Of a DNA stretch of 64,000 bases, positions 1,975-64,000 are shown one piece after another; position 1 is the stretch's first letter, and every line of letters begins with the position of its first letter. The notes beneath the pieces were generated by a model. The model saw only the letters and a list, made by a program, of their open reading frames with translations. It was not told the DNA's origin and searched no databases. The stretch lies in the NCBI GenBank assembly GCA_905178155.1, contig CAJINV010000006.1, forward strand, positions 2,520,658-2,584,657, written 5' to 3'. The stretch is from Amoebophrya sp. A120. Its lineage: Eukaryota > Protista > Dinoflagellata. A program made the translations under genes and the position numbers.

Positions 1975-4851
1975 TCACCTCGTGTTCCGTGTCGCCCACG
2001 TGACTTCCACGTGCTTTTCCCAGAATTCCGCCCCGTTCAACGCCTCAATGCCCGCCCACGCGGCGTCCTCCGTTTCGAAGAAAAGAAACCCGATGCCCTT
2101 GCTGTAGCCGTCGCTGTCTTTGCACAGTTTGATCCTGCGGACGGAATTGGTGTCTTGGGGTTCCGGATGACATATACCAGCTTCCACAGTTCCCGCTGGA
2201 GGTTCAAACCGCATTTCGTTTTCCTTGAGCCAATTCTGCACATCGGACTCCTTTGCTTCTAACGGCAGGAATTTCAGGAACAACTGCTGGTAGTAAACCT
2301 TCTTCTTCGACCCATTTGGAAGCAACGGATCCGCGTTACTGTAGTCCGGCTTCGCTTTTTCCCTGCAGAAAGCGATTCGGATCAGCCGGTTTTTCAGCAT
2401 CACCGGCTCGTTTGCCAGATTATTTGCGTATTTTTGGATTTTTTCCGCGATACTCCTATCTTCTTCCTGAAACTGCGCGATCGCCTTGCCGAGAAACTTC
2501 GACCGCTCTTTCTCGACCAAAAGCTCAATTTTGCAATGGAGATTTTGATTTTCTTCCATAATTTTTGGTTCGATCGCTGCTAGAAGCGTTCTCACATCCT
2601 TCTCCGTGCAGTCAAAAGGAAGGCCGGAGAGAAACAACTTCGTTTTGTCCTCGACTTCAGTTCCTGCGCTTGATCCGTTGTCATAAGCGCCATGGGTAGA
2701 GGAAGTTGCGTCGGCATTACTACTAGTACCCCACGAGCTACTAGTGCCCTGTTTCCCCTTCCCCTTCGCCGTTTTTTCCTTCATCAAATCTTCCCTGTCT
2801 TTGGACAAACACACCCGCAAACTCCTCGTGTTCCACTTCGCATTGTCGAAGAGCTCTACTGCTTGACTCGCGTACTCTTTTTTGCTGTAGGTGACAAACC
2901 CCATCCCCGCTTTCTTGTACAGCTTCACGCGTTCGATGATGTTCTCTGTAGAAGTTGTATCAGCATCTGCACTTGACGTGCTGTCGGCTTGCTTTGCAAC
3001 AAGGCCATGTTGAAAAAACTCCGACACATCTTCCTCCGTCGCTTCGTACGGGAGAAACCGCACAAACAACTCGCGTATGGAATGCAAAAATGTCTGGGTC
3101 TAGAAAGTTGCAACTTGTCATGCAGATTTTACATGGCCCGTGACGTCTGTGATGTATTTTCTAGCATCACAGATTTTCTGAGAGCTTCTTGATGCCTATT
3201 CCGCATGACAAATGCCATCCCTGCGCGGAACAAACTGGACTCCTCTGCTTGCTGGTCATGCAATACAGATTTTTTTAGAGTCCAAGGTTAGCATCACAAG
3301 TTCCAACTTTCCAGAACCAGACATATTTACAATCCATATCGCGCTCGCCCTTGTCAGACAACACAGCGCCTTTCCCGTCCTTGCCTTTCCCTTTCATCGC
3401 GTTTTTCCCACCTTGCTTCCCAGCCAACTGTTCTTTCGCCATTTTCGGGTCCGTGGCGTGCCAGGTGACCTCGTTGGTCTCCGTGTTGATATATCCTGTG
3501 CAAAAGTCTCATACTCGTACAAATGCAAGTCTTGCATTACAAATCTTGTTTCCAAGGGAAGTCTGCGTTACAAATTCTATTTCTCATGCTGAGGAAATTT
3601 GTAATGCATTTATACGAGTACGATACTTTTGCACAGGATATGATAAAAGAACAGTTGATAAACCTGCTCCCGATGGACTTGTTCTCTACCAAGTCGCTGA
3701 TATTCTTCTGGATAATTTTGATCACATCAGCAGCAGCGCCTGCTTTCTCATTCGGAAGGAAGTTGTAAACCCAAGCTTCCCCCTTTATCAAGTGCAAAAA
3801 TGTCTGGGTCTGGAAGATTCCGAGACTTGTCATGCAAATTTTATTTTTTTTTTGAGTTTTGCATGAGCCATCATGATGTCTGTGATGCATGCCCTAGCAT
3901 CACAGAGATGATGCCTATTCCGCATGACAAATAATACCCTCTTCCCGTAGCAAAACTTACACTCCCCTTGCTGCTCATGCAATACAGATTTTTTTGGAAT
4001 CCATATGTAGCATCACAAGTTGCGTTCTTCCAGACCCAGACATATTTGCGCTCGATACCCTTACACGGCTGACAATCGGTTTCCGCTAGCTCCCACTTCC
4101 GGATCGTGCCCACCCACACGTCTTGTTCTTTCGGCATAGAAGTCTTGAGCAGATGAGCTTGTGTATCTTCATCTCCATCTTTAATATTGCCAACCTTGTC
4201 GTAGTAGTTTTCTTGCAGAAACTCCAGCACGTCTTTCGCTTCCGCGGTAAATGGGATTCCGAAGAGGCGAAGCGCGATCTTCCCCGCCGTGCTGTTCTTG
4301 TCCTCGCCAGTTGTCATGTTAGGGGACGCATCGTCCGTCGAGCAACTCGCCGCAGGAGAGGCGTTGGTCGTTGTGTAGCCCGCGTTCGTGTGGTTTATTG
4401 AGGATGACTTGTCAAGCTTTCGTTTCTTCGGCTGTGGCTCTGCTAAGCTTCCTGTTTGGTCAACTTCTTGTTCCTCCGCTTTCTGGTCTTGAAGTGGTAC
4501 ACCATCACCATCCTCCTCTAACAAAGAGACCTCGATAAATCTGTCTTGCATGTGCTTCTTGTGGAGAGCCTCGACCAACGATTGTTTATCTGTAGTTGTT
4601 TTCATCCTCCCTTCTTCCGCATTAACAGAAACTTTCACCCAGGCTTCGCCTCGTTTCGGCTGGTTTTTCTTCGGCTTTTTCGCGCCGATCTGGACGGTTT
4701 GGATAGTAATCGTGGTCACATTTGATGTCGTACTTTTGCTGTTTTCCACCACAAACGCCCTGCAATCCTCCTCCGTCGCCTTGAAGGGAAGGCCGAACAG
4801 ACGGAGCGTGAAGGACGAGGTGATATTTTCATCTCCGCAAGCGTTCGTCAT
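1975..4851 (-). CDS. Multi-RRM RNA-binding protein, 4 exons
   Basis: Repeated RNP2/RNP1-like motifs (LRLFGLPF, LFVRFLPY, GMGFVTY, LFLSGLPF, LFLKFLP, SKGIGFLFF). Frame is continuous after removing elements 3786-4057, 3492-3640, 3076-3338 plus one 5-nt DR each (CKG|EAWV, SFI|NTE, GER|ELFV). Confidence 0.88.
3076..3338. mobile_element. Introner-like element, TIR family A
   Basis: TATGGAATGCAAAAATGTCTGGGTCT...CCAGACATATTTACAATCCATA; DR tcgcg both sides. Confidence 0.9.
3492..3640. mobile_element. Introner-like element, family C (~150 bp)
   Basis: TATCCTGTGCAAAAGT...ACTTTTGCACAGGATA; DR tgata. Confidence 0.9.
3786..4057. mobile_element. Introner-like element, family A
   Basis: Family A TIRs; DR ccctt. 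Confidence 0.9.
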
Positions 4852-5697
4852 TTTGTTTTTGGCGAGGTTCGTCTACAATTTCGTGGAGAGAGTAAAAAAC
4901 GTGGTGCAACTACTTATTGCAAAGGGTGCGAAGATGTATCACTATCGCTGAGAGTCTCGCTCTATCGATGCCTCGATTCACAGTGGCAATCACAATGACA
5001 ATGGCAACTTCCTCTATAAATTTTTCATTCCTGGTCTGAAGGGATGGTCTGATGTTGCTCTAATGAGGTTGGGAATGCGGTCGAGGACAATGACAAAGCT
5101 ATATAGAAGATCATCTTCTTTCCATTCACAGCTAGTATGTATGAAGATCTTCTTCTGTCGGATCTGCAGTCGTGTGAACCACCAAGATCTGATTTTTTGC
5201 GATGGTAGGAAACGAGCCAGAACATTCAAGATCGAGTTAGTACACGAGGAGTTCATCCTGCTTCAATTTTAGAAGTACGGATCCGTTTTTCATCGCAGCT
5301 TTCGAAGCATTTATCAAAACGTGAACAAGGTGAAGGTCTTGTGAGGATGAAGGGATCCTTTTTTGCTGGTGTCTTTTTCCGTACGTTTCTACAACTGAGG
5401 GAACGAGCATCGTGATCTCGGTTTTGATCATGGGTACTGAATCTTGAAAGACGCTTCTCTTCACCACAGATCGTCCCCGGGAAGAACAACCACAAATTCA
5501 AAATGTTGTTCCCGGTAATCGATTACGACAGCCGAAGCTGCTTTTCCAATGTGTTTGTTATTGTTTCTTTCTTGAAAAATCTCCAAAACAAAATCCAACT
5601 AGAATCTTTCAAGGTCGGACTCGGTTCCGGAGGTGGGGGTGGTGGATCTCGAAAATAAATGCATGAAACTGGTGCACTACTACAGCTGCGATCTTCA

Positions 5698-9814: not shown

Positions 9815-10228
9815 CCATCTGCGTCGCCCCCTCAAATCCCTCTGCCCACGCGCTCGTTTTCTCTCAACCGGCTACGAAAACCAATAGCACTCAGCGGAAA
9901 TAAAAAAACTATGACTACTTCTACCGAACAAAATGTAAAACCTCGTGAGAGAACCGAAGTCGGGAGTTGTGCGTTGTATGATTTTGTTTCAAAACACCAC
10001 CGAACACAGGCAGGGCACGATTTGCGAAACCACAACTCTATTGCCTGCTAACCTTTCGCCTATCCTAGTAGCTAGAGGGCGGCAGCCACCGTGAACATAA
10101 AAGAACTGACACTCGTCATATCAACCACTTCCACTGCGGAGCGACGATTTCCTGTGCCTTACCTTTAAAACGGTCAGTCGATACTGCGCAGAAGGTCGGG
10201 TATCAAAACAGGCACAGCGCAGCTAGGT
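9815..10228. repeat. Block-conserved ~400-bp segment, copy 1
   Basis: Shares blocks CTCGTGAnAGAACCGAAGTCGG, TTTCAAAACnnCACCGAACA, TGAACATAAAAGAACT, GTCAGTCGAnACTGCGCnGAAGGTCGGnTATCAAAACAGGCA with 11165-11588. Confidence 0.85.
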
Positions 10229-44076: not shown

Positions 44077-46300
44077 TCACTTTCGCTTTCTTTCACAAAA
44101 AACCTTGGCTCATATCACCATTTTTCGCATCTACTTCCGTCTCGGAATCATTATAGCCGTTATCCTATGTAAAAACGTCCCCACCCCATAGTCAAGATCG
44201 GGACTCGGCTAGACAAATCCACAAGTTTTGGCCGTTTTGCATGACAAATTTGGGCTCGTAGTGTAGTGCTGTTTGAGCTAGCTCAGCAGCATCACAGATC
44301 TACTATATCATGCCGATTGGAGCATGACAAATTCCAGAACACACCTGGAAAATGCTTCTCATGTGGCTCCGCATGAGAAACATTTTCAGCATGCAGATTT
44401 GCATGACAACTCTGGGGTGGGGACGTTTTTACACAGGATAGCCGTTTCTGCTACTTCTCTCGGACCACGACTCCAGTCTGATTGTCCTACGTTCACCTAG
44501 CGTGCTCTGTGTAGAAGTTCGTCCGTGAAGAACTGCTACATCCTCTTCCAGCACTGGAAAAAAAGAGGATCTTTTCGTTCTTCTCCGGGTGTGCAGCAGC
44601 TGCTGTTGTTCCATGTCGTCTTCCTCATCTGACCCGTTTATTTCTTCCTGCTCCCTGGTACCGCTACCGCACTTCTGGTGCCCCTGGTCTACTTCTGCAC
44701 CATCTTCCCGCGACGTACTACTGGCAGTAGAAGTGGTCCCCGCGAGCACCATTATCGCCTCCCCCAGACACCGACTCACCTGCGCGACAACTCCCAGAGG
44801 ACCTGAAGATGTTGAAGACCCGGTAGTAGCACTATGCGTTGTAAATATCGATCTGGATCGAACTGGATTTGTGACGCGAGATTTGAAGGACAACAAGGAC
44901 TTGTGATGCATAAAATTATGCGACTCATTGGCTACAAATTTTTTGTCATGCTGTGAAGCTCAGTTTGTCATGCGGATATTTTTTACCAATGAATCTGCAA
45001 CAAGTCTGTCACAAGCATTTCTGATGCGCTCGTGCCGTATCGAAGCGGCCACTCTGCAAAATGCAAGTGCCCGCAACACAAATACAAATTTCAAGACATT
45101 CCGATCGAAATTTGCGATGCATAGCCGCCCATGCTGGCTGTCGCGGCCGCCACCGCGAACCCGTTGTCCCTTGCGAAACTCGCCGCCGCCGAAGACTCCG
45201 CCGCGAGTTTGGCCTGTTCAGCTTGCGCCGTAGCCGCTGACATTTTTGCGATCAGACTCTGGATCAGGTGGCCGTTCGAAACTAGCTTGTTGTGCGCGGA
45301 CAGTGCTTGTTCGTACGCGTTTTTGACGCCTTGGCTCCACATCATCGTGGCGGTAGCAGGTGGAAGGGACGAACCGCCGCCCGGGATGGCGGCGGGCTGG
45401 TTATTGACAGTTTCTTGTGAAATAAATTTTGGCATGACAAACTACAAACGTTACTTTTGCTGGTTTTAATACTTTTGGTGTGCGACTACATCTGCATGAG
45501 AAAAGTCAAGAAAAAAGAAGTCGAGTATCAAATCTATGTTCTATACGAAGGAAAATTTGTAGGGATCCAACTGCGACATGACGTTGGTGGTATTTTTCGC
45601 GAATTGCTTCTTCCAGGCTCGATCCGCCGAAACCTACTTCCGGTCGTCTTCGGATGGTTCCTGCTCCGGATCTGCTGCGTCTCCGGGTCCGGTCGCGTGT
45701 TTGAGAGGAAGTTGGCTTTCTACTTATCCAATACAACTTCCAGCGGGATTGTTCTTGTGCTGATGTATGGCATATATAAATCGCGGCCCGGCAGCGCCGT
45801 CCTCACCCGAAAGATGTTGAGATGCACCGCAACACGACCAGAGCAGCTTTTTCGAAGAACTCACTTCTGAGATAGCGATGACACGAGCTCGTCGTGTATC
45901 AACTGTAAAAATGTCTGGGTCTGGAAGATTCTGACACTTGTCACGCACGTTTTGCATGAGCCATGATGTCTGTGATGCATACCCTAGCAATACAGATTTT
46001 TTTAGGGCTTCTTGATGCGTATTCCGCATGACAAATGCCTTCTCAGCGTAGCAAACGTTGCATTTCCGTTGGTACTCATGCAATACAAATTTTTTTGGAA
46101 TCCAGATGCAGCATCACAAGTTGCATTCTTCCAGACCCAGACACTTTTACATTTGATATGGTGCAGATGTTGACTAGCGTCGATCGAAGGAGTTGTGGTC
46201 CTCTGGAGTGTGTGAACAAAAGTTGTGGCTCTACAAGACTACTCGGATCTACATGATTGCTGATGCTGGTTGCGTTTCTTAAAGCGAATTGTAGTGTATG
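44077..46300 (-). CDS. Multi-exon hypothetical protein containing the Ala-rich family module
   Basis: Exon 45124-~45430 encodes PPATATMMWSQGVKNAYEQA...AAASFARDNGF; three elements; both ends approximate. Confidence 0.4.
44161..44440. mobile_element. Introner-like element, family B
   Basis: Family B TIRs; DR gccgt. Confidence 0.9.
44833..45123. mobile_element. Introner-like element, family L
   Basis: TATGCGTTGTAAATATCGATC...GATCGAAATTTGCGATGCATA; DR decayed. Confidence 0.7.
45897..46158. mobile_element. Introner-like element, family A
   Basis: Family A TIRs; DR tcgtg/tggtg. Confidence 0.9.
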
Positions 46301-47279: not shown

Positions 47280-48703
47280 TCACGCTGCCACCGGTGTTGC
47301 CGCCACCGACATTCCCTATGGATTGCAAAAATGTCTGCTGGGTCTGGAAACTTGTAATGCTCAAAGTGAACGATAGACGCACTGCAATACGCAACTACGC
47401 ATGACAAATTTCTTGGCTGCCATGTCTTACGTATTCCGCATGGCGAACTGCGTTTTTGCATGACAGGTAAGAGGGCTTTTTCCTGCCTATGCAACACAGA
47501 TTCTCGAGTCATGCCAGACAAGCATGACAAACCTGCATTCTTCCAGACCCAGAAATTTTTGCATTTGATATTCCCAAATCTTTCGCGACACTCGCAGCGG
47601 CTGCCCGTTGACTCGCCTCCGCCGCGGTTTGGGCGGTCTGGTTCAGCGTCTGTCGTTAATATGAATTGCACATTGATATCGATCTACTTACATACTTGGT
47701 CTGGAAGATGGCAACTCTGAATCTAAGAACTCTCTGTCATGCACAGGCACATCGCAATAAAGACCCCGCTGGTGTCCATGCAAAAACGGGGTTTGCCATG
47801 CGGGGTAGAGAACGAACACCTAGCAGCTCGAAAATTTGTCATGCTGCAGGCTGCGTATCGTAAAAATGCTACTACCCAAGTTCGTACCATCACCATGCAC
47901 AGATTTGCATGACAACTTTCTCATCCTGACGAAAAAACACATATGTACCTGCAGTTTCGCCATGTTGCTGCTGCTCATCTGCTCCAACGTGCTTTGCTCT
48001 GCCGCAATTTTCTGTGCCTGTTGCTGCGCGTCCGCTGCGATCACGGCCCACTTTCTCGCCGCCGCTTCGGGAGGCATGTTTGCCGACGGATAGGTTTCCG
48101 GAAACCGGAGGAAGGCGGTTGAGGCTCTGGTGGAAGTAGCTCGGGTGTGGCTTCCTGTAGTTCTGCCGTTCTTTTGGGGGACGTAGAACGGCTGTGAAGT
48201 TGTAGTAGAAGATGCGAAAAACGAGGTGAAAGAGGAAGAGGTGCTAGTACTAGATCTGCATCTGCTTGTTCCACCCACACCTGTCCATATCATCGCACTT
48301 TCTCCATGTAGATTTCCTGCTCCGCCGTGACAACTGCTGCCACTCGTTCTCGTTGTAGTTGTTCCCAGCATGACTTTTCCCGCAGGTGGGTAAAGCTGCT
48401 CTGACAAATGGCGAGAGCATCCTACTGGGGTGCAGTCGGGCTGGTGGCCCGATGCGTCGTCGAGAAAAGTGCCGAGAAGGTTGCGTATCAAAAGAAAAAA
48501 GTTCTTCACGATCACTCATGGGCATTTTTGCAATACAAAAAATGCCTGTCATGCGTAAAGATGCATCGCAGCCAAACAGCATACGGGATTTCCCTTAGTG
48601 TTTCTGCAATACAAGGAAAAGCTATGATGCTAAAAAATTTGTAATGCAAAACCCCCAAGATAGTGACTGTGACAAACTTTTTTCTCTCCATATTGCGCAA
48701 CAT
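47280..48703 (-). CDS. Ala-rich helical hypothetical protein (local paralog family)
   Basis: MLR|NLLGTF...PPEAAARKWAVIAADAQQQA...AAAASVAKDLG|MSVAATPVAA*; a degenerate intron at ~47660-47945 has uncertain edges. Confidence 0.6.
47317..47570. mobile_element. Introner-like element, family A
   Basis: Family A TIRs; DR ttccc. Confidence 0.9.
48486..48692. mobile_element. Introner-like element, family M (D/E-like)
   Basis: TATCAAAAGAAAAAAGTT...AACTTTTTTCTCTCCATA; DR ttgcg. Confidence 0.85.
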
Positions 48704-49638: not shown

Positions 49639-52600
49639 CTATCCCTCCCCAATTTCAGCTTCTGCCAGGTGCAGCTGCGGCGCCCCGGCTATCAAATGTA
49701 AAAATGTCTGGGTCTGGAAACTTGTGATGCTGAGTGGCGTAGCACAAGGAGGCCACAAGTGCTGGCTCAGCATGACAAATTTCTCAGCTTGTAGGTGTTG
49801 CCTATTCTGCATGACAAACTGCGTCTCCACATGACAGAAAAAAACGTCTCTTGGGCAATGTGCATGACAGATTTAAGAGTCATGCCAGACAAGCATGACA
49901 AACATGCATTCTTCCAGACCCAGACATTTTTACATTTGATACCGGCGACGGACGCCTTACTCGGGTCCCGCGAGTGCTGACTCGGGGTATTACAGTGAAA
50001 AATGCCCCCCACCCCTGAAATTGCAAAAATTTGTGATGCGAAGTTTCCAAATGAAAACTCTTTGTCATGCATGAAAGGAGTATGAATCTTTCTGATGCTG
50101 AGTCTAGGCATGGATCGCATCGCTTGCATGACAAGCGCCGCTCGTGCTGGGGTCTTTTGCAATACAAATTTTTGCTATTCACGATAAGAAACTTGTGATG
50201 CTGATAGATGCAAGACGGCGAATGTTTCATTTGGAATACAAATAGATGCAAGGTTTGCAGTACAAAGGCTCCCAAGTTCGGGGGTGGGGGTATTTTTCCT
50301 TTTGATACGGGGAACCCGAGGTTTTCCGGTGGTGACCCCCCGCCGTCCTCCGCCCCGGCTCCATCAGGCCGCTCCCACCGGTGGCTGTCGGCCGCCTGTT
50401 GTGGCCCGTGTCCGCAAACCCGTGATCGGATTCGTCGAATAACAGCGACTTACTACCCATGGTACTCGACGCGAGCAGCTGTGCCCGACTAGTCATCGAC
50501 ATGGAGCCGGATTGCGAGGGCATGTTGTATGCATTGCAAAAGTATCGTACTCGTGGTAATTGCATACACAGATTTCTTTTCTCAAGGTAAGTCTGCATTA
50601 CAAACTCCTCTCCATTTGAGGAAATTTGTCATGCGATTACTCCTAGTACGATAGTACTTTTGCAATCCATATGTTGTGGTAGTCGTCCATTCCCTCGGAC
50701 TCCGATCCGACCTTGCTGTGCGCCTTGTATTCCTGCAGCCGCGATTTCCGCCGTTCCTGCGGCGAAGTCTCATCCCAGTACGCGATCTCGGACGGGATCG
50801 CGAACGCCTGCGACTCGTCTTGCAGCAACGACGGCAGTTGGGAGCCGAACACGTTGCCAATGTGGTACTCGTCGAACGGATTCAAAACGACCGGCTGCGC
50901 GACTGTTTCCGCGTATTTGCGCGCCGGATTCATGGCAATGGCCTGCTGCCGGGTCACGTGAATCTCCGCGATCTTCTGCAGACTGGTGTTTTCCTTCTCG
51001 CGGTAGATCAATTTTCGCAAAATGGAGCCCTGGTTCAGGAACAACTTCTTAATTTCCAGCTCGCCGTGGTTGCTATCGATGGGGGAGACCAGCGCTCGCA
51101 GAAACAACAACGGGATAAAGTTGTATCACGTGCAAAAATGTCTGGGTCTGGAAGAATGCAACTTGTGATGCTGCATTTGGAGGTCTAAAAAATTTGTGTT
51201 GCATGAGCAGCAAAAGGAGTCTAATTTTTGCTACGCGGAGAGGGCATTTGTCATGCGGAATAAGCAGGCATCAAGAATCCCTCAAAAAACTTGTGATGCT
51301 AGTGCATGCATCACAGACATCATGGCTCATGCAAACCGTGCGTGACAAGTTTGAGAACCTTCCAGACCCAGACATTTTTGCATTTGATAAGTTGCAGCAG
51401 ATGGCGATCACTTGGACCCCCGTAATATCCTGAGTAAAAACGTACCCACCCCATAGTTGTCATGCAGGTCTGCATGCTCAAAATGTTTCTCATGCGCAGC
51501 CCTATGAGAAGCATATTCTAGCCAAGTGTAGTTTTGGAATTTGTAATGCTCCAATCAGCATAACAGGCTAGGTCTATGATGCTGTCCAGCGAACTAAACA
51601 GGATTACACTACGAGGCCGAGCCTGTCATGCGCAACAAGCTAAGCTGTCTGATTTGTGTAGCAGATTTCCCATCTTGACCATGGGGTGGGGACGTTTTTA
51701 CTCAGGGTACGTAAATTTCGAAAATTTGTACTGCCCCTCGTACAAATCGGAGTTCGGCGTCACGCCGAACAGCTCGCACAGAATCGCCCCGTTGGCTGCA
51801 CCCTGAGATTCGCCGAGGAGAAAGCAGGAGAGAACGATGGCGTAGACCAGGTACGCGTTGGTGTAGTAGATGGTAACCGATTTGTATCCCACGAAAAAAG
51901 TATTACAGTTACACATCTGTTGTCAATTTAGCAACACAGATTTTCTCTGCATGGGAGGAAAAACAAAAACTTGCAATGCAGAGATCATAAGGGAAAACAC
52001 GTACCAAATGAGGCTTAAAAGCATTTTGTGCATGACAGAGCTTGTCAGTCTTGCTTGGCCTGCAACACAATGTGTAACTGTAACACTTTTTTCTTTGCAT
52101 AATTTGTTTGTCACCACTTCTTCCGGAACATCAATTGTTTTGTCGGCTATACTAACGTCAGTAGAGGTTGATGAAGGGATTTTGATACTATTCGAAGTTG
52201 TTGTCACTGCTGTTTGTTCAACATAATCCTGCGGCGGAAGAACTTGCTGTTGCTGTTGAGTCGAGTTCATATTACCCCCGCTCTTGTTGGCGAAGTGAAT
52301 GAAGGTCGACTCTTGATTTTCTCGGGCGAGAGCCACACTGTCTAGAGACGAGTTGACGTTTGAAGAGGCGGAAATCGGTTGTCCGGTCGCACCAGTGGTG
52401 TTGCTCCTGCTACTTTTTGTCCCCTCTAGAAGTAAATGAGCCTCAGGTGGCCCCTGCTGCTGCCCTTCCGGATTCGCCGCTTCGCCCTCTGCCTTGCGAG
52501 GAATAAACCGAGACCGACCTCCCCTTCCCAATATTGTTGTGTCAGGTGCGGACACTAGGGCCTCTTTCCCATCGTCGTTGTCTCCTTGTCCCTCATCTTC

Positions 52601-55600
52601 TCCTCCCACTTCGACTTCCGGCATGTAATTATTCGCTACGGCTGGAACAATTGCCACCGGCCCGTTCTCTTCTCTTTGTTCTCCTTCTCCTTCTGTGTGC
52701 GCATGAGCCTCCATGTTGCCGTGCGGGTGAATCATCTCCACCGGGACAGGGCCGGCAGCAATAATTGCTGGGTTCGCAGTTCTACTACTGTCATCCAGCC
52801 CTGCAACATGTAAACGATCCGACGAGCCGATGTGCACCAAGGGCGGGATAACTTCCGCCTCCGTGATGCGTCCGGCAGTCCCGCTCGTCACGGTTTTTCT
52901 GCTCCGCACCTCAATCAGCAACGTTTTCTTTGCCGCGGCGGGGCTCACCTTGGCCGCGAGGGTGTGCAGAAACACGAAATTTAACGCGATGGCCACCGCG
53001 TGGCAAAACTCTTCACAAAACACGAGGATAACGTCCATGGTTGCCGACCGCGAGTACCAGCGGGAGTATATCGCAAGAAAAAACTGTTTCACTGTAAACT
53101 TGTAATGCAGAAAATGCATCTCCTCACAAGCGTGTGTCTTGCTACACATGCAAGACAGTGGATTTTTAGCTGTGTTTTCCCCTAGGGACCTTGCATGGCA
53201 AATTTTCTCTGTCGTGTAGAACAAACTTGTGATGCAAAACCTGCAAAACCCTTACAGTGAAACAGTTTTTTCGTGGGATAGAGTAAAGCACAAGGGCAAA
53301 GATCTGGCTGCCGAAATCGCAGAAGGTGGCCACGAGAATCAGTTGCGTGGAGGAGAGTATCGAAAGAAAAATTGCTCCCTCCCCATATCAAAGTGGTAGT
53401 TTGTGTTGCGGGATTTGTGTACACAAATCAGCTCTGTCTTGCAGTATAGGAGTGCAGGCAGATAAAAAGCCTGGAAGGCGCTGGCTAGAGGTGAGCGCTC
53501 AGCATGGCAGACGTCTGCCCTGTTGGTGCAGCAGCACTACAAATCGCCTGCGGAAAGCGGCGAAAGCTCCGGCTTTGCTCTCTTGCAAGACAGACCTGAT
53601 TTGTGACCACAAATCAGCATCACAAATTTTCAAAAGGATGCCTTTTCGATATGGGGAGGGGGGATTTTTCCTTTTAATAGAGAGGTTCTGTTCCCCCGGG
53701 GCACCTTTCGCGTAGTTTTTGTGCAACTTTTTTGGTGATGTTGAGGGTGCTTTTTTTCCTTCTTCAGCATGTTGGTCCTCGTCTTCATGCGCATCGTGAA
53801 GATCATTTTCCTCGTCTGAACCGTGCTCCTGATCTTCCTCATCTTCTTTCCCGCCCTCATCGTAGTGCTCTCCCGTTAGGCTGGACGTTAAGTACGGAAT
53901 GGCCTTCCGCGCCCGGCTGGCCAGGAGCATCATCACCAACAGCTGCGCCAAATTCGTATCATATGCAAAAATGTCTGGGTCTGGGTGGAGATTCTGAGAC
54001 TTGTCATGCACGTTCTGCATGAGCCATGACGTCTGTGATGCATGCCGTAGCATCACAGATTTTTCGAGGGGTTCTTGATGCCTATTTCGCATGATAAATG
54101 CCTTATCCGCGTAGCGAAAATTACATCCCCTTTGCTACTCATGCAATACAAATTTTTTTGGAATCCAAAGGCAGCATCACAAGTTCCACCCTTCCAGGCC
54201 CAGACATATTTGCAATGCATAATTCGAAAGCACCGGCAATTCTGCGGCGACAAACGGCAGCGAGAAGTGCGGCCCGTCGACGTACTCCCGCGCGTAATTT
54301 GTTCGGTATCCTGAGTAAAAACGTCCCCACACCAGAGTCTCAAGATGGGGCCCTCGCAACACAAATCCAGAAGCTTTGGCAGTCACGCATGACAAGTTCT
54401 TGCAGCACGTAGTGTAGTGCAGGTTGGAAAGGACATCCGCATTACAAATCCATGTGCTTATGCTGTGTACAGCATTACAAATCCCAAAACACGATTGCAA
54501 ATGCCTATCATGGGGATGCGCATCACAAATCTTCCTGTCATTGCAAATCTGCATGACAACTCCGGGGTGAGGACGTCGTTTTTATTCAGGATATTCGGAA
54601 GTAGAAAATCACCCCGGTAAAGGTGAAGTGGAAGCAGCCTTTTATCATCAGATACAGCAATGCGCGGCTGATGATCGGCAGCAGCATGCACCCGATCGCT
54701 AAGCCGCATACCGTCGTCAACCCGGCGGACAGAAGAACAAACTGCGCGTTGGCTGCCGCTGGAATCCGCTGCTTTGTCGTGTTGTCGAGCCCGGGGAGGG
54801 CTGCGACGCGGGAAATCCGCCCGGATTCGTGGTCAAAATCGGCGGAAAAACTCGCGGAAAGGAGATCAACATCTTGGTCGTGCTCAGCAGCTGCGGGGTC
54901 AACACTTCTTGATGCGGTATTCGCCGCGCTCAGCATCTCAGAACTAGCACTACCACTACTACTGCTACTGCTTGCCAGAGAACTCGAGAAGACCCAGTAC
55001 GGCAAGGTCATCAGCAATAAGCCGGTGATCGCCAAAACCCACACGAGGAGGTGTAGATCCCAGGCTTTCTCTATGAGAGTGCACAACTCCCCCTCCTCTT
55101 TAAATGTATGGCATGAACAGCAATGCAGACACCAGCTCAAATGGTGCCTCCGCATGACAAGTTGATGCGCCTAACCTAGTACTGTTTGGGCTACTTCCGA
55201 GTAGATTTGTCATGCAAACCGTGCCACAGCGCAGCGATAGGATTTCGGATACGGATTTTGCATATACAAATCAGGGCAGAGGGGAGTTGTGCACTCTGAT
55301 ATTCTCGTTATCAAATGTAAAAATGTCTGGGTCTGGAAGAGTCATGCTGTTTTTGCATGACACAGAAGGTCTGGCATGGAAGCTCTAGCATCACAGGTTT
55401 CGAGAACCTTCCGCAATGCCGAATCCGCATGACAAGTCCCCGACTTTGCTGGCAAAAAGTGGGAGCTTTTGCTACGTATGCATGAGAGACTCGTCTGTGT
55501 TCTGAAATACGCATTACAAGTTGCATTCTTCCAGACCCAGACATTTTTACATTTGATACTCGTCGTGCACTTGCAAATCCACGTGGTTTCCCACCATTTC

Positions 55601-58600
55601 TTATCAAATGCAAAAATCCCTGGATGTCTGGAAACTTGTGATGCTGGGTGGCGTATCATGAGGAGGCCACAAGTGCTGGCTCAGCATGAGAAGTTTCTGA
55701 GCTTCTAGGTGTTGCCTATTCTGCATGACAGACTGCGTTTCTGCATGACAGAAAAGTGGCGCTCTTGGGTAACGTGCATGACAGATTTAAGAGTCATGCC
55801 AGACAAGCATGACAAACTTGCATTCTTCCAGACCCAGACATTTCTACATGTGATATTTCTTTTTCCCTCTGCGCCTCGGCCCGCCTCTTCTTGTCCCGCT
55901 GGAAGTGCCGGAGTTTTTTCTGGATTTGGTCAAAGTTGGGCTCTTCCTCCTCCTCCTCCTCTTCGATCTCTTCCTCATCGGTTGTGAAGTGGCCGTCTTG
56001 ATGTTCTTCTACCTCTGCAGCCCCTGTAGTTTGCTGCTCTGTCATTGCTCCAACAAGGACTTGCTCCTCCGGAGCTACTTGGACACCCACAAGACCTTGG
56101 CCCGTGTTTACAACTACTCGCAACCCCGAGTCGGCGTTAGTTTGCCCCTCGACACCGGCTGGCTCTTGTGCGAAGTTTTTACTTTTGACGAGAGCGGAAG
56201 TACTAGATGTTGCAACAGCATTCTGCTTCATCGCTTCAACACCGTGTTCAACAGCATGTGCTTCATGATCAGCATGTGCATCCCCTGCTTCCACCTCGTC
56301 TTCGTCGTCCTGCAAGATCTTATCCACCGCCTCCTTATCCGCGAGATCCTGGTTTCCGATCGGCTGATGAGGATGCTCATTTTTCTCTGACCCTGCTTCA
56401 TCAGACGTCCCAGACTGCTCCTCCGGCATGGGGATGTGGGCAGCACCAGGAGAAGTTGCAGATGCTGTCGTTGCACTTGCACCACCAGTACTAGCAGGAT
56501 GTTGCAACACTTGATTTTCACTGCTATCTGGCGCATCTACTGCTTCTCCTTCGGCATGGGCCGCGTGCTCTTTATGATGGTGATGGTGGTGGCCGCCCTT
56601 TTCCTTTTTCTTCTTCTTCTTCTCCTCTTTCCCCGAATTAGACGACTCGGAAGTGGAATACGCACCTTGCTGCTGCTGCTGATTTGCCCCCGCCGCCCCT
56701 TGGTCCTTGTTTTCCGCTTCCTTGTTCATTTGGATGACCTGTCCAATGCAAAAACGCCCCCACCCCGGAGTTGTAATGCAAATCTGCATGCATACAAAGT
56801 TTCTCATGCGGAAACCCAACATGAGAAGCATTTTCTAGTGGCTTTTTGAGATTTTTTGTTATGCTCGAACCAGCATGATGCGCTAGATCTGTGACGCGGT
56901 TGCAGCACTAGCTGAGTACGATTATATTGCTCGGCCAAACTTGTCATGCGCAACAGCCAAAAGCCGGCTGATTTGTGTAGCAGACTTCCCATCTTGAATA
57001 TGGGGTGGAAACGTTTTTACTCAGGATATCACCTGTTCCAGCGTCATGCCCTTCGGTAAGTCCCCCGCGCGTATCGAATGTAAAAATGTCTGGGTCTGGA
57101 AGAATGCAACTTGTCATGCTAGATCTGAAGCATGCAAAAATCTGTGTTGCATGATTACCAAAAGTCGTCCAGTTTTGACCAAGTCGGGAGGGAGTTTCTC
57201 ATGCAGGATAGGCATGAGAGAGATCGCGCAGAATCTGTCATGCTAGGTCCTGCATTCCAGGCTTCATGGGTCATGGAAAAGCTGCATGACAAATCGCGCA
57301 TTCTTGCAGACCCAGACATTTTTACACTTGATAGCGCGGGGCTTCGCCGCGGTGCCGAAGGACTTCAGTTTGAATTCGCTCACGTCCACCTTTTCCAACG
57401 CCTGAAACCCGCCGGGATTCTTCTCCCCCTCCTGCAGCCAGTTGGTGGCGAAAACAAACACCGCGACGAAAAAAAGCGCGCCGGAGCCGAGTAGTAACAC
57501 CGCGAAAGGGTTGTTCACGTGGTGCTTTAGGAAATATAGCTGATTCAATTCCAGTCGCCGTTGGGATTCTAGAGTAGTCGGATTTGATAGTGTTTGCTCT
57601 GATGTTCGACTTTCGTCTTGTCCGCTAGTGGATGAAGAACCTCCTGCAAAGGATGTGAAGAACGCCCCACTCAACAGCAGGCCGCAGCCGATTAGAACCG
57701 ACCCCACGATGGCCCCGAGCAATGCGCACGCCTGGCCGTAGTTCGCGATCAGCATCGCGTTATGCATTGCAAATTTGTTTGGGTCTGGAAGAACGCGAGG
57801 CTTGCCATGCTCGTTACCTACTATGGCTCTCAGAGTCTGTCAACATGCACGTTAGGTACCCAAGAACTTCAAGTGCTCCGCTTATTCTCGGTCATGCAGA
57901 GGCGCAACTTGCCATGCAGAATATGAATACGCAAGACCTAGCATAACGAGTTTGTCATGCTTGGCCGTCAGTTGAGATGTCCTCATGATTGTCCAACCCG
58001 CATCACAAGTTTGATGTTCCAGACCCAGCCATATTTGCATTGCATACGCGTTGCTGCTGTTCCGGCGACGGACTAACTGCACCATGCGTCCTTCGAGCAA
58101 AACCTTGGCGAGAAAGATCCCCAGCTATCAAATGTAAAAATGTCTGGGTCTGGAAGATTCTGAGACTTGTCGTGCATGTTTTGCCTGGGCTATGATGTCT
58201 GTGATGCATGCCCTAGCATCACAGATTTTTTGAGGGCCTCGCGATGCCTATTCCGCATGACAAATGCCCTCTCCGCGTAGCAAAAATTACACTCCCTTTG
58301 CTGCTCATGCAATACAGATTTTTTTGGAATCCAAATTCAGCATCACAAATTGCATTCTTACAGACCCAGACAATTTTACATTTGATACCAGGGTGGTGAA
58401 GGCGATGGTGAGGGAAAAGTGGCGGGCCAGGGAATTGGTTGCGGAAACAGCCAGGCTACTACTTGCGAAATTGGTGTCAGAAGCAGAATTTATCATCGCT
58501 TTTTCCAGTCCATCTTTGGTTTCACTCTCTACAACTGCGTCGTGGAGGTGGGCGTGGAGTCTCCGGCGCTTCTTGGTTTTTATTCTACTTCTTTGCTCCA

Positions 58601-61600
58601 CTAGTTGTACTTCTAAGGTACTAGAAGTTCCTCGTCCGGTTGTACTACTTCCTACTTCTCCACCCTCGTGCTTGTCCCCACCTCGCAGTTTGCTCTTCTC
58701 GTGCTCAACGTTATTCTTTCCTGATGCAGCTGTATGCCGTAGTCGTCCCTGAGATGAATTTCGCTTACCTTCGTCCCGTCGGAGATTCGGTCTCTTATTT
58801 GTTCCCGCAAACACGACCTCCTCCTCCGCATGGTCTTGTGGTCTTCTACCATTTGCCGCTATTTCATCGTGATAATTTCCAAAATCATTAAGGATCTCCT
58901 CGCGATCAAGGAGAAAAGAACTGCTTGTACCACCGCTTGATTCTCCGATATTGTCCTCCGCGTTTTTACTTTGGGTCGTTTCTGTTTCATCTTCATTTCC
59001 CTCAACCTGATCCTGTTCCGCCCTTGGTTCTTCACTTGGAAGTGTTGCAGTTGTTGTGCTGTTGTTCAGCTTGCTATTGCTTTGAACCGGAGGGCTCTGT
59101 TGAACAACTTGGAATGTTGCGCCACCACCACCGCCGCTGCTTTGCTCCGGCGCAGCATACGCGTGCGAAGATACATCAAGCTGGCTTTGGCTTTGCCCCA
59201 ACTGTCGCTGGTGCGCATTCTTGAGCAAGGTGAACGTCTCTTCCAGCCTTTCCTCAAACATCTGGGTTTCCAAATTATCAGCGAAGACCGGGAGAATTTT
59301 ATCCGCCTTCATTAGTTTATCAAATGCAAATATGTCTGGGTCTGAAAACTTGTAATGCTAAAAGTGGATGATAGACGTGCCGCAATACGCAGCTATGCAT
59401 CACAAATTTTGTGGCTGCCGTACCTTATGTATTCCGCATGGCAAACTGCCTCTATGCATGACAGTTAAGATGGCTCTTTCGTACCTATGCAACACAGATT
59501 TTCTAGTCATGCCAGCCAAGCATGACAAACTTGCATTCTTCCAGACCCAAACATTTTTGCATTTGATACAGTTTCTCCTGGAGCAAAAAGTATTCCGCGT
59601 CGGACACTCCCGCAGCGACCAGAATGGCTTGCGGGATGAACAGGGATTTGTTTTTCAATGCCCGGGAAGTTGCGGTTTGGCGATGCAACATTTGCTCCAG
59701 TGTCAGCCCCTGATCCTCCTCGTCCTCTCCGGGCGCGAGCGAAAGCCCCAAGCCGTAATTCGCGTGCACACCGGTCGTGTCTGAACTACGAGCTGCATCC
59801 ATTCCTCCCTCGTATCCACTTAGAATGTCGTCGTATTCGTATCATTTGTAAAAACGTCCCCACACCAGAGTCAAGATGGGAAAGCTGCTAGACAAATCAG
59901 CCAGCTTTGATCGTTTGGCATGACAAATTTGTCCTCGTAGTGTAGTCCTGTTTGAGGTAGTTCAGCAGCATCAGAGATCTAGTATACACATACTGATTAT
60001 AGCATCACAAATTCCAAAACACGGCTAGAAAATGCCTCTCATGGCGCTCCGCATGAGAAACTTTTTTGGAATGCAGATTTGCATGACAACTCTGGGGAGG
60101 TAGGGACGTTTTTACTCAGAATAATTCGCTCTTGTTCGTGAAGAACAACGCGACCGGGAATACGACGCCAAAGAGAAGCAACGAGAAGCAAATACAATTC
60201 GTGACCTTCCGGGGCTTGTCCTATCAAGTGCAAAAATGTCTGGGTCTGGAAGAGTGCCAGGTTTGTCATGCTTGTCTGGCATGACGCAGAAGAGTTTGCG
60301 ATGCGTGTCCAAGAAGAGAGCCTTTTGCGTGTCATGCAAAAACGCAGTTTGTCATGTGGAGAGCGCAATACTAAGCCGCGCAGATTTCTCTCATGCTTGG
60401 CTGTGCATTACAGAGCATTCACTATTCCCAACCGAGCATTACAAGCTTCCGGAACCAGACATTTTTGCAATTCATATGTCAACCGCGGAAGCAAACTTCT
60501 CTTTTCCAGGAGCGGACTTGGGTCCGCTCACGGTGTGCAGGGATGATGACACCGGGCTGGTGCTTATCCTGAGCAAAAACGTCCCCACACCAGAGTCAAG
60601 GTGGGAAATCTGCTAGACAAATTAACTAGCTCTGGTTGTTCCCCATGACAAGTTTGCCATCATAGCGTAATCCTGTTTCGCTAGTTCCGCAGCATCACAG
60701 AACTAGCATATCATGCTGATTCTAGCATCACAACTTCCAAAACACGACCAGAAAATGCTTGTCATGGAGCTCCGCATGAGAAACTTTTTTGACATGCAGA
60801 TTTGCATGACAACTCTGGGGTGGGGACGTTGTTACTCAGAATACTGCTCACGTCCACCGCGTCGCCCACCATCTTGCCGCCCGAGTGTTGCTCGCGTTTC
60901 CCGCAGCAAAAGAAGCAACTATTGACGATCGAGTCGCACAGTTTCAAGTGCTGGCACAGCCGGTCCAGCCACATGGCACGCTCGACAAACAAGGCGAACA
61001 ACGGGGCGAGGAGGAAGGTGTTCTGGCAAAACGCCTGCAAATTTGACACTTCCGGGCCGGGAATCTGCAGGTACCGCATGGACCAAATGAAGGAGGTAGA
61101 AACCGCAATGGTCGCGAGTCCGAAGAGAAAAAAATTCGCGATGCCGTAGAGCAAACCGAGCTTCCAGCCGGTGATGCGGAATACTTCACGCACGGACGAC
61201 TTGACAGACCGACACGGCCGGCAACACCCCCGCGTGCACTTTTCCAGCCCCGTTTTTGGCCGTTTGCCTGCCGTGGAAAAGCTGGACAGGAAAGTTTTCG
61301 GCAATCCCTATTGAGAGGAAAAACATCCCCAGCGTTGTCATGCTATTTTGCATGCCAAAAAAGTTTCTCACGCGGAGCCCTATGAGAAGCATTCTCTGTT
61401 CCTGTTTCGGAATTTGTGATGCTCGGATCAGCATGATGTGCTAGATCTGTGGTGCTTCTGAACTAGCTAAATCGAGGACAACACTACAAGGATCGAAACT
61501 TGTCATGCCAAACAACCAAAGGTGTGTGACTTGTCTAGCTGATTTCCCATCTTGACTCTGGTGTGGGGACGTTTTTAATCAGGATAAACCCGCCCTTGCA

Positions 61601-61884
61601 CTTCCCCCGTCGTCGCTGGCGGAGGCCAGTGCAGTTTTCGCATCGGCGGAAGCGGAGCTGCTTGGCTTCGTCAGGTCCGAAGTAGACGGGGGGAATTTTT
61701 TGAGCTTGGCATGAGGATCCACCTCGCTCGTATTCTGATTGTTTTCCGCACCAGCGTCTCTGTTTCCTCTGGAAGCCCTCCTACTGGTGCGCAGGACGAT
61801 TGCGGTGGGCATGGCGGCATCTTCAGAATCCGTGTCATGATTCTCCAACAAATGCGCGGGAAGCCCGCGCGCGCCCTTACCCAT
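49639..61884 (-). CDS. BT1-family (folate/biopterin) MFS-like transporter with long low-complexity insertions, ~23 exons
   Basis: Multiple TM helices and BT1-like segments (EVSNLQAFCQNTFLLAPLFALFVE; LLEGRMVQLVRR; FVFLHTLAAKVSP; LVYAIVLSCFLLG...LCELFGVT; NFIPLLFL). Most junctions checked stay in frame across 22 elements. Family call is from motif resemblance only. Confidence 0.68.
49690..49941. mobile_element. Introner-like element, family A
   Basis: Perfect ~30-bp TIR; DR ccggc. Confidence 0.92.
49988..50307. mobile_element. Introner-like element, family F variant
   Basis: TATTACAGTGAAAAATGCCCCCCACCCC...GGGGTGGGGGTATTTTTCCTTTTGATA; DR cgggg. Confidence 0.88.
50528..50671. mobile_element. 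Introner-like element, family C
   Basis: Family C TIRs; DR tgttg. Confidence 0.9.
51124..51389. mobile_element. Introner-like element, family A
   Basis: Family A TIRs; DR agttg. Confidence 0.9.
51426..51709. mobile_element. Introner-like element, family B
   Basis: Family B TIRs; DR cgtaa. Confidence 0.9.
51885..52101. mobile_element. Introner-like element, family E
   Basis: Family E TIRs; DR atttg. Confidence 0.9.
53069..53280. mobile_element. Introner-like element, family D
   Basis: Family D TIRs; DR gagta. Confidence 0.9.
53358..53679. mobile_element. Introner-like element, family F (inverted relative to 33283-33604)
   Basis: Family F TIRs; DR gagag. Confidence 0.9.
53957..54221. mobile_element. 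Introner-like element, family A
   Basis: Family A TIRs; DR attcg. Confidence 0.9.
54307..54593. mobile_element. Introner-like element, family B
   Basis: Family B TIRs; DR ttcgg. Confidence 0.9.
55072..55301. mobile_element. Introner-like element, family N
   Basis: TATGAGAGTGCACAACTCCCC...GGGGAGTTGTGCACTCTGATA; DR ttctc. Confidence 0.88.
55309..55558. mobile_element. Introner-like element, family A
   Basis: Perfect ~30-bp TIR; DR ctcgt. Confidence 0.92.
55602..55855. mobile_element. Introner-like element, family A
   Basis: Family A TIRs; DR tttct. Confidence 0.9.
56740..57028. mobile_element. Introner-like element, family B (left end TGT)
   Basis: Family B TIRs; DR tgacc/tcacc. Confidence 0.87.
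57072..57333. mobile_element. Introner-like element, family A
   Basis: Family A TIRs; DR gcgcg. Confidence 0.9.
57761..58046. mobile_element. Introner-like element, family A
   Basis: Family A TIRs; DR cgcgt. Confidence 0.88.
58126..58387. mobile_element. Introner-like element, family A
   Basis: Family A TIRs; DR ccagc/ccagg. Confidence 0.9.
59318..59568. mobile_element. Introner-like element, family A
   Basis: Family A TIRs; DR tagtt/cagtt. Confidence 0.9.
59840..60123. mobile_element. Introner-like element, family B
   Basis: Family B TIRs; DR attcg. Confidence 0.9.
60222..60476. mobile_element. Introner-like element, family A
   Basis: Family A TIRs; DR tgtcc/tgtca. Confidence 0.9.
60565..60843. 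mobile_element. Introner-like element, family B
   Basis: Family B TIRs; DR gtgct/ctgct. Confidence 0.9.
61309..61586. mobile_element. Introner-like element, family B
   Basis: Family B TIRs (left end eroded); DR atccc/aaccc. Confidence 0.85.
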
Positions 61885-63711
61885 AGTCCTTATATTATTT
61901 TTATTTGGGAAATTTCTTTATGGGCGATAAGATTAAGGATGAGTAGAAATGCAGTTTCTTTTACATGTAGTTGACGTGAAGAAGTGGTGTGTAGAAACTC
62001 GTTAGGGGGAATGCGGATGTGGTGACGCAAAAATACTTATGAATCGAAACTACAAAAGGAGCTGAGATAGGGACTTTGAGGGGAATGGAAGCGCATGGTG
62101 GTATGGCTCCTTCTCATTCTCTGGCTGTTTTTTTACTAAAAAAGTGTTAGTCTGGAACAGAGTGTACTATATGGTGGGGAAAACTTGAAGATGAACTTGG
62201 TGCTTGTATACAACACTTGAGTAAAAGACCTGATCTAGTACAACGATGAAGGCGGGAATTACAACTTCCACGAAACAAAGCCTGGTGGATGAAACACGAC
62301 ATACCATTTAGAGAATCAATCACGATTTGAGCGTGTAGTTGACAGTCAGAACTTACTAGAACCGGGATGAAAAGAACGTCGACCTGCTGGTGCAACTGCT
62401 TGAGCTCGGAATGCGACGCACGGAGTTCACAATCAAGAAGAAACAATAGAAGAACGAATCAGTGTAGAATTATGACCAGGAACGATCACGATGCGATTTT
62501 TTTGGAACGACACAAACTTGCACGAAGGGGAGTGGTGACGACAGCTGAAATACGAAATACTTTATTGTTCTGTTCTTGAACGAAAATGAAAGAAACGGGT
62601 CTGAATTCTTCTGTATCTGTCTGTAGTGTTTGACGACGAAATCGTTTCAAAGTAGCATCCACGAACAGCACTCTTGCTACGCTAGAGAAGTGGTCAACAT
62701 CTTCTACTGTGCTACTAGCTAGCACGTTGACCACGACATTACAGTGCTTTTAATATTCGCCCGGTTTTCATTTTCAACAAAATCGAACTTTGCGATGTAT
62801 CGGCACAGTACTTCTTCTACACAGAGGATAGATTTTATTTCCTCAAATTCTGTACCACACAAGAAAAATATTCCGTATCACAATATCTGGGGTCCTCGTT
62901 GTAAGCAAGCAACCAGCCGCCCCTCGGAAACTGTAGCTAGGGTTCTTATTTGTCAAAGCAACAGACTCTGCATGAGTATAATCTTCAAGGTACTACGTAC
63001 GTACGTGCCGGAATTCTTATCTAGCCTATCTCAAAGCGCAGCCTCGTAAGTAGTAGATCACGGACGAAAGTAACTTCAGCTTGGAGTCTAATTTATGCCC
63101 GGTGGTCTTGCTGCGCTTGATATGCGAAGGATTCAGCATCAAAAAATCTCGCTTGTCTCCAAAGGAAAGCATACACGACTGGTCCGGCGGTTTTTCCTCC
63201 CTTTTTGTTGCTCTGTAATCAGTGCAGCTCCTGCGATCAAAACTGTTGTATATCCTTCTTCTAAATAACGGGCTTTATCCGTATACTCCCCGCTGTCTTG
63301 ACCAGACCGCCCCTTCTTTCGTTAAAAGCCTACCAAAATTTGCTGTGTGACCGGCTACTATCATTCGCACAAGCCTTGTGTTTTCCCAAACAAAAGTGAA
63401 GATCCTAGGCAGGGGGTCAGTGCTCTCCTAGGTCTAGCGCACCAGAATTAGGTGGCATGCATCAATATTCTGACAAAAATCCGAATAGAAATTGCGAGTT
63501 TAATTGGTACAAGAAAAGTTGTGTTGTGGTTTGTGCCTATTTATTTTCCCTTCTCGTAGGGGTAGGGCACAAAAAATGACATACGTGAAAACGCAAGTTG
63601 TTGTGTGGTTGAGGTTGACATGACAAGCACAAGGATATAATTGTTGTTTTTAATGCAGGAAAAAAAAAAGTGAGTTTCTAACACACAGGTATCATCCTAG
63701 GTAATTTTCGT

Positions 63712-64000
63712 TCAGTGCTGAAACTCCGGCGGGATAAAGCCACCATCAATCGGCGGTACGCCCATCGGATTCATCATCCCAGTTATCGTACGAAAAAAGT
63801 GTTTCACAACTGCGAGGATAATTTTGCAGCTTTTGCATCACAAGTTTGTTCTACACGACAGAGAAAATTCGCCATGCGAGGTTCCTAAGGTAAAACTACA
63901 CTGCCAAAAATGAAAATCCTCCGTTGTCTTGTTACATGTGTAGCATGACAAAGAACACTTCTGCGATGCATTTTCTGCATCACAAGTTTACAGCGAAACA
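63712..64000 (-). CDS. Probable last exon (63712-~63783) of a gene that starts beyond the window
   Basis: Sequence after the final element reads TGMMNPMGVPPIDGGFIPPEFQH*; frame not verifiable. Confidence 0.3.
63784..64000. mobile_element. Introner-like element, family D, inverted, truncated by window end
   Basis: TATCGTACGAAAAAAGTGTTTCAC...; interior is the reverse complement of 53069-53280. Confidence 0.85.

Follow-up and report, generated by a model that had tools for sequence, protein, structure and literature searches.

A fixed 1+4 cut register of TAT...ATA inverted-repeat introns in a 64-kb region of Amoebophrya sp. A120

The closest described counterparts of the introns analysed here are the introner elements of the dinoflagellate Amoebophrya sp. 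A120 (Farhat et al. 2021, PMC7789003). They begin with TAT, ~7 variable bases and an A-run (at least three A in the definition), carry inverted and direct repeats, measure ~240 nt, have non-canonical borders and form many families. The same traits were found in the TAT...ATA elements of a 64,000-nt stretch of A120 contig CAJINV010000006.1 (hereafter the window, meaning the whole stretch), the ends of which share the pattern of TAT, ~7 variable bases and an A-run in a position table. The window resembles the published case in host protein identity, TAT inverted repeats, direct repeats, families and non-GT-AG removal, the latter seen in contigs of guessed RNA status. Because the window encodes an A120 protein at 100% identity, its elements are the published A120 introners, a class already known for this strain, in agreement with the initial annotation, which had named such elements as reported from Amoebophrya. 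The published account describes splice sites variable with respect to the hairpin, an unknown border and repeats of 3-5 nt, whereas in the window the repeat is 5 bp long and dispensable and the cut is fixed, one nucleotide before TAT and four nucleotides after ATA. This fixed, repeat-independent 1+4 register is the new part and a useful addition; no statement of a fixed register was found in the literature, where PMC7789003 was judged without its figures (including 3 and S14-S25) and subscription journals were thinly covered. A terminal inverted repeat (TIR)-flanked A120 introner family with open reading frames (ORFs) resembling integrases of long terminal repeat elements has also been described (PMC12130899).

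Several other systems are similar in part. The nonconventional introns of euglenids and diplonemids (PMC3935182, PMC12621601, PMC11282704) also have non-GT-AG borders, paired ends, short direct repeats, a longer unpaired 3' arm and a proposed origin from miniature inverted-repeat transposable elements (MITEs). In euglenid introns, however, CA at +4/+5 pairs with TG at -7/-6 and the borders are pyrimidine/purine; the window elements lack this pairing, and show TAT/ATA pairing of +2 with -5 and free borders. The introns of Fritillaria borealis (PMC13326754, PMC11282704) are likewise derived from transposable elements with TIRs and target-site duplications (TSDs) and escape GT-AG, but they are mostly AG-AC/AG-AT, with U1 kept and U2AF duplicated, whereas A120 elements are free at +1, -1 and -2 and U1 has been reported as undetected. 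Introners of Polarella, Symbiodinium and Aureococcus (10.1101/2020.10.14.339549) share the DNA-transposon character, TSDs of 3-8 nt and, for some, function in either orientation; in them G(T/C/A) and AG are supplied by the element or the TSD, which constrains the target, while the window elements need no such supply. The TA..TA termini of the integrase-related superfamily IS3EU/GingerRoot (PMC10045372) are found in the window too, although the TSD there is usually 6 bp and not 5 bp. The window elements do not have the GT (or GC)...AG ends of U2-type introns, but U at +2 and a purine at +3 are present in 72/72, partly by construction of the census. The strain AT5 and the Karlodinium strain retain GT-AG.

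A strict scan for TAT...ATA pairs, requiring an exact 5-bp direct repeat and an inverted-repeat score of at least 14, gave 44 pairs in the window as against 0-1 in each of five local shuffles. The final census was built on a relaxed scan (64 elements). The dubious pairings 5559, 13217 and 30552 were dropped, and the right end of element 6478 was set to 6786, where an exact repeat lies; 22931, 34218 and 61309 were added by inspection, three elements from RNA joints, four from the end profile and reading frame, and 5954. The resulting 72 elements of 144-378 bp (median 262; 18,545 bp of the 64 kb in total) agree with the earlier count of about 70 in the same size span. In transcript orientation, 70/72 begin with TAT and 2/72 with TAC, and 69/72 end with ATA, as had been noted before; these ends are partly guaranteed, since the census was built on them. 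The flanking 5-bp direct repeats are less regular than first described: exact (5/5) in 48/72, with one mismatch in 17/72 and largely or wholly lost (at most 3/5) in 7/72. The inverted repeats, first put at 15-35 bp, are present but often longer (median 34 bp, range 0-69, by a gapless 75% rule). For each element the inferred intron runs, on the minus strand, from core start-4 to core end+1. The cores are the following:

Cores 1-12, minus strand: 3076-3338, 3492-3640, 3786-4057, 5954-6111, 6478-6786, 12865-13132, 13416-13613, 13893-14058, 14187-14486, 14556-14817, 17427-17636, 17718-17955
Cores 13-24, minus strand: 18738-18951, 22320-22569, 22616-22894, 22931-23218, 23323-23535, 24207-24357, 24618-24871, 24919-25171, 25231-25511, 25602-25872, 26661-26968, 28404-28614
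Cores 25-36, minus strand: 28652-28860, 28893-29177, 29233-29382, 30995-31311, 31566-31882, 31960-32222, 32298-32627, 32693-33022, 33283-33604, 33689-33992, 34218-34595, 34995-35250
Cores 37-48, minus strand: 35313-35462, 35621-35833, 39838-40158, 40218-40479, 40678-41023, 42025-42276, 42368-42637, 42686-42911, 42970-43204, 44161-44440, 44833-45123, 45897-46158
Cores 49-60, minus strand: 47317-47570, 48486-48692, 49690-49941, 49988-50307, 50528-50671, 51124-51389, 51426-51709, 51885-52101, 53069-53280, 53358-53679, 53957-54221, 54307-54593
Cores 61-72, minus strand: 55072-55301, 55309-55558, 55602-55855, 56740-57028, 57072-57333, 57761-58046, 58126-58387, 59318-59568, 59840-60123, 60222-60476, 60565-60843, 61309-61586

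Evidence for removal comes from unstranded contigs of one sample, the RNA nature of the runs being a guess: no run recorded as RNA contains the window, three contig sets guessed to be RNA contain about half of its words, and two unlabelled runs 0.77. Contigs were placed on 22001-42000 and 44001-64000, with element 3076 outside both. For 31/31 elements with a measurable loss, the RNA-like contigs drop the core plus exactly 5 nt. Among the joints listed for 22001-42000, 14 of 15 from run X1 belong to their own locus and each removes the core plus 5 nt; in 44001-64000, a 6439-nt contig of the same run skips five intervals, corresponding to 17 elements plus exactly 5 nt each, and run X2 repeats two of them. 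The joint 22349-24662, a link between two repeat copies, was left out before counting.

Run X5 is DNA-like. Its contigs cross element-exon borders and contain whole elements (e.g. 57308-58150) at a depth of 43-53, compared with 45 in intergenic DNA. Programmed DNA elimination in some life stage, with the RNA derived from element-free alleles, would suit the DNA-transposon anatomy, and X5, judged here among the joints listed, may have supplied the reads of the assembly and may represent a single stage. Against this stand the whole elements in X5 at intergenic depth, a cut that is asymmetric in the direction of transcription whichever way the element lies, and the presence together in run X1, at element 34218, of an unspliced contig (depth 24) and a spliced joint (depth 116.8), all of which makes elimination very improbable. 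The initial proposal of precise removal from RNA is supported, with the core plus 5 nt lost from RNA-like contigs at all 31 measured elements and the elements kept in X5.

The position of the cut was expressed as an offset, the count of intron bases before TAT in transcript orientation, with the strand taken from ORFs. This position is masked by perfect direct repeats but shows at mismatched ones. All 28 junction readings (14 X1 joints in 22001-42000 and 14 piece ends in 44001-64000) allow offset 1, and no other single offset is compatible with all of them: offset 0 is ruled out by four junctions (32298, 33689, 59318, 60565) and offset 2 by seven (30995, 31566, 32298, 33689, 39838, 45897, 61309). 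The published 1036-aa A120 protein is compatible with offsets 0-2 only, but is not independent of the published RNA-based model. The introns that bear on the register are listed here, together with the example of the initial annotation:

3072..3339, minus strand: predicted AT...CG intron of the RRM gene, the initial example; placed by reading frame only (732-aa ORF); terminal stem z -10.2
32294..32628, minus strand: unambiguous RNA joint A-TAT...ATA-TTGC; repeat 0/5; exactly offset 1
33685..33993, minus strand: unambiguous RNA joint G-TAT...ATA-CCCG; repeat 0/5; exactly offset 1
31562..31883, minus strand: intron found from RNA; repeat 1/5; offsets -1 to 1 allowed
30991..31312, minus strand: intron with mismatched repeat; offset 0-1
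39834..40159, minus strand: intron with mismatched repeat; offset 0-1
34214..34596, minus strand: intron of the longest element (378-bp core); offset 0-2
45893..46159, minus strand: intron with mismatched repeat and no long ORF across it; offset 0-1
59314..59569, minus strand: intron with mismatched repeat; offset at least 1
60561..60844, minus strand: intron with mismatched repeat; offset at least 1
61305..61587, minus strand: intron with mismatched repeat; offset at most 1

The introns 32294-32628 and 33685-33993 were missed by the initial census and found by RNA alone. As elements 32298 and 33689 have no direct repeat and are cut in the same place, the repeat is dispensable for excision and is not the ruler, a role that falls to the element end. 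The intron is N-TAT...ATA-NNNN, with one flanking base taken on the TAT side and four on the ATA side. This register is known from minus-strand genes only, the window having no plus-strand gene for a mirror-image comparison. A hairpin with a short direct repeat is the usual substrate of template switching by reverse transcriptase, and the data are contigs derived from cDNA, so the joints might be taken for artefacts of this kind. However, the two repeat-less joints share the geometry, and 64/72 elements carry stops in all three sense frames, yet their removal restores ORFs of 2139, 1065 and 943 aa; template switching across repeat-flanked hairpins is therefore an extremely improbable source of the joints.

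Two elements only 7 bp apart (55067-55563) have overlapping target duplications and leave a 2-nt micro-exon, 55303..55304 on the minus strand. The arithmetic of the RNA-like contig keeps both of its bases, consistent with each element being excised by means of its own two ends. At the inferred register, intron phases are 32/15/17, +4 is T in 70/72, -7 is A in 72/72, and the border bases are free; GT-AG and GC-AG do not occur among the 72 elements, and AT-AC occurs in 5. In element 3076-3338, none of six registers on either strand yields GT-AG, GC-AG or AT-AC, as originally stated. Ordinary splicing at cryptic GT-AG sites nearby was also considered, since an in-frame GT...AG pair lies within 12 nt of the ends in 27/72 elements and one intron with a decayed element (47650-47948, below) does use GT-AG. 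None of the 14 own-locus joints listed in 22001-42000 is GT-AG on the coding strand (35615-35834 was marked GT..AG, but on the non-coding strand), and for 17 further elements the lengths missing from the contigs amount to exactly +5 each. Use of such sites, named at the outset as an outcome that would count against the proposal, is refuted for the bridged elements and scarcely credible overall.

The reading frame leads to the same length. Removal of 60 window elements with 5 nt each gives a 2030-aa ORF over 21 junctions, whereas removal with 3, 4, 6 or 7 nt gives ORFs of at most 549 aa, which bears out the claim that the element plus 5 nt restores the frame; the test in the window covered +3 to +7, and in related loci +2 and +8 keep the frame equally well as +5. 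With the fuller census the ORFs measure 2139, 1065, 943, 902 and 732 aa, besides an ENY2-like gene. All long ORFs and Pfam matches of the window are on the minus strand; a scan of the window with Rfam gave 0 matches. The principal host genes are:

1978..4872, minus strand: RRM-domain host ORF, 732 aa from stop to stop, with 3 elements
21275..27067, minus strand: 5-phosphatase-like host ORF (PF22669) with 10 elements, equal to A120 GSA120T00020679001 over 1036 aa
30923..36986, minus strand: host ORF of 943 aa with 11 elements, 10 with listed RNA joints and 30995 at the ORF end
42020..43313, minus strand: ENY2/Sus1-like gene of ~97 aa with 4 elements, two of them with decayed repeats; EnY2 match below the cut-off
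49642..61917, minus strand: host ORF of 2139 aa with 22 elements, 17 of them bridged by one 6439-nt RNA-like contig

The exon 23537-24202 is 100% identical to Amoebophrya sp. A120 GSA120T00020679001, and the spliced 5-phosphatase ORF shows 0 differences from the published 1036-aa A120 protein across 10 junctions. RRM_1 and Exo_endo_phos2 were matched above the Pfam cut-offs within single exons, while EnY2 was matched by one 28-aa exon at E 0.0012, below the cut-off. A host coding exon is not confirmed for every element; element 45897, for example, has no long ORF across it. In 46159-48480, one RNA-like contig, of sufficient length to link two ORFs, passes through 46159-47310, where every sense frame contains stops; this may be a long untranslated region, read-through or a contig fusion.

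Outside the window, an element end matched 131 stretches of metagenome contigs, and no match was found in viral contigs. The 130 loci analysed all come from one assembly, maybe of the same or a close strain, and so are not independent taxonomic support. From them 365 related elements were picked without any direct-repeat requirement. An exact 5-bp repeat is present in 265/365 and one with a single mismatch in 46/365, with no comparable peak at lengths 2-4 and 6-9. Together with the anatomy of the window elements, which are short, TIR-bounded, multi-copy and provided with a TSD of fixed length as MITEs are, this agrees with the suggestion of a MITE-like DNA transposon with a 5-bp target duplication. 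Removal with 5 nt (or 2 or 8) places 156-160/365 related junctions inside long ORFs, compared with 71-74 for other lengths. The 239 related elements that could be oriented show no constraint at +1, -1 and -2; in 166-210/239 a U-tract occupies -15 to -18. No empty site with a single repeat copy, orthologous to the window, was found among the 130 loci, which include no orthologous locus.

It is likely that the elements are non-autonomous cut-and-paste transposons with a 5-bp target duplication; their anatomy suggests that a cut-and-paste transposase with a 5-nt stagger would insert them. In the most far-reaching interpretation, the A120 spliceosome would be blind to +1, -1 and -2, take U+2/A+3 from the TAT end and measure 4 nt past ATA. 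As this 1+4 ruler would equal the 5-bp duplication, any insertion would be a perfect intron at birth, with its repeat free to decay. The probability of this complete reading is put at about 0.45; for the catalyst by itself, a relaxed, U1-less spliceosome, the balance tips slightly in favour. Since 1+4 makes up the duplication, a new insertion into any sequence and in either orientation would not alter the mRNA. With inverted repeats as its ends, an element lying either way round gives U+2 and A+3 on the 5' side and, on the 3' side, a U-tract at about -15 to -19 and AUA at -7 to -5. A U2-type spliceosome without U1 would still read U+2 via U6, the requirements for G+1, G-1 and A-2 would have been lost in A120, and the 3' cut would be set by the distance from AUA, perhaps aided by end pairing.

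Several observations speak for a spliceosome. With the 1+4 cut, U falls at +2 and A at +3, the same letters as in GUA. In the P complex of yeast, A51 of U6 is the pairing partner of U+2, whereas intron-intron contacts recognise G+1, G-1 and A-2 (10.1101/212811). In Table S4 of PMC7789003, the nine top border classes of A120 and the nine of A25 all have T at +2, and for A120, 83/89 spliceosomal proteins and U2, U4, U5 and U6 have been reported as present and U1 as undetected. A modified U2 spliceosome that acts on non-GT-AG introns derived from transposable elements has a precedent in Fritillaria (PMC13326754). The GT-AG intron 47650-47948, with its decayed element core, is counted on the same side, as are the U-tract of the related elements and the intron phases at this register.

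Other points weigh against the proposed spliceosome. Canonical letters show no selection, GT-AG being found in 0/72 window elements and in 7/239 related ones, about as expected from base composition; neither was a drift to G+1 or AG seen among 64 elements with mismatched repeats, some of which may have mispaired ends. The invariance of U+2/A+3 is built into the census; the one informative point is where the cut falls, which could be chance among six registers. The U-tract, simply the 5' A-tract in reverse complement, may have its function in transposition; the 5' site would be buried in a stable stem; a branch point was not identified in the elements; and the borders in Table S4 of PMC7789003 may carry aligner bias. 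Euglenid introns, with a similar stem and a longer 3' arm, leave as circles (PMC11282704). The RNA evidence is a single sample of unstranded contigs with guessed RNA status, and 8 more joints in 22001-42000 and 2474 more in 44001-64000 lie outside the counts.

The same elements could be removed at the same register by a nuclease acting on the terminal stem, which would cut in a staggered manner, 1 nt beyond the stem on one side and 4 nt on the other, before a ligase joins the exons, as proposed for euglenid and diplonemid introns. Terminal stems are strong (e.g. z -10.2 for 3076), TAT:ATA pairing is predicted with P of at least 0.5 in 47/72 elements and at least 0.9 in 5/7 of those lacking the repeat, and euglenid introns, which pair +4/+5 with -7/-6, have a longer 3' arm too (PMC3935182). 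The lack of preference at +1, -1 and -2 and the reported failure to detect U1 in A120 also suit a nuclease. Yet predicted pairing is below 0.1 in 16/72 elements, including 4/31 bridged by RNA. Counted in favour of the nuclease, mismatches in the first 20 pairs are G-U rather than A-C by 69 to 47 (p=0.05; borderline and confounded), but such an excess can arise from transcription-biased mutation, and all four mismatches in the terminal three pairs are A-C, none G-U. Tens of thousands of such introns would also be cut this way beside a nearly complete spliceosome. Recognition of U+2/A+3 by the spliceosome fits the cut position equally well as hairpin guidance, and we regard the stem-directed nuclease as the main rival, if a rather unlikely one, leaving a small chance to mechanisms outside those named. 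The earlier suggestion of hairpin- or geometry-guided excision is refined in its geometry, which is set by TAT/ATA and asymmetric (1 nt at the 5' end, 4 nt at the 3' end); the hairpin may guide the cut, though some elements have little predicted pairing.

The fixed N-UAU...AUA-NNNN register puts a precise rule in place of 'no clear splicing signature' and explains harmless insertion in either orientation. With it, A120 introns in the tens of thousands could be annotated correctly, and the excision mechanism would become directly testable, since lariat, circle and snRNA-pairing tests would have exact coordinates. Should a spliceosome act here, the near-universal G+1 and AG requirements can go while U+2 stays; the reading of U+2/A+3, if true, would also cover the TTA-ended elements of A25.

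Normal GT-AG splicing coexists with the elements, as first supposed, in at least one case:

47650..47948, minus strand: RNA-supported GT-AG intron with a decayed TAT...ATA core (47660-47943), off the 1+4 rule

This suggests that elements can age into canonical introns. Candidate GT-AG introns at 12707-12817 and 13201-13322, placed on the basis of a 106-aa ORF, carry remnants (a decayed core or the GCATGACAA motif).

Families among 64 clustered elements have 11, 10, 8, 4 and 3 members, besides five pairs; the best pairs within the window are 79-91% identical, and both orientations occur inside families (5/6, 6/4, 5/3). Two elements of one family in opposite orientation, 60565-60843 and 61309-61586, form a 145-nt inverted repeat. 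One further element, at 63784-64000, is cut by the window end and stands outside the 72. In most elements the motif GCATNRCAA and its reverse complement lie near both ends, across unrelated families, with 85/81 matches inside and 19/9 outside the elements of the census at that stage; its role might be that of a repeat for transposase binding or of a signal resembling a branch point. GCATNRCA is found 34-55 nt from the 3' end in 33/72 elements. A target bias noticed post hoc (C at -4 in 33/72, A at +1 in 29/72) was not replicated in 175 related elements with perfect repeats. A 6-bp duplication was rejected, with 0/365 related elements having a 6-bp repeat at 0 or 1 mismatch. In 31560-31887, element 31566 seems to be flanked by a 6-bp repeat with one mismatch, but RNA removes the core plus 5 nt only.

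The regions 7200-11000 and 19400-21300 are GC-rich (53-62% GC), contain no elements and have overlapping ORFs in several frames. Among the related loci, a 2940-bp element at 6264-9203 of L058 combines a long, near-perfect inverted repeat with an exact 5-bp duplication and internal tandem repeats, and lies beside a 456-aa ORF. No transposase was found in this longest TIR-perfect element, its nine ORFs giving 0 Pfam matches. Another long member, of 972 bp, lies at 5001-5972 of L026.

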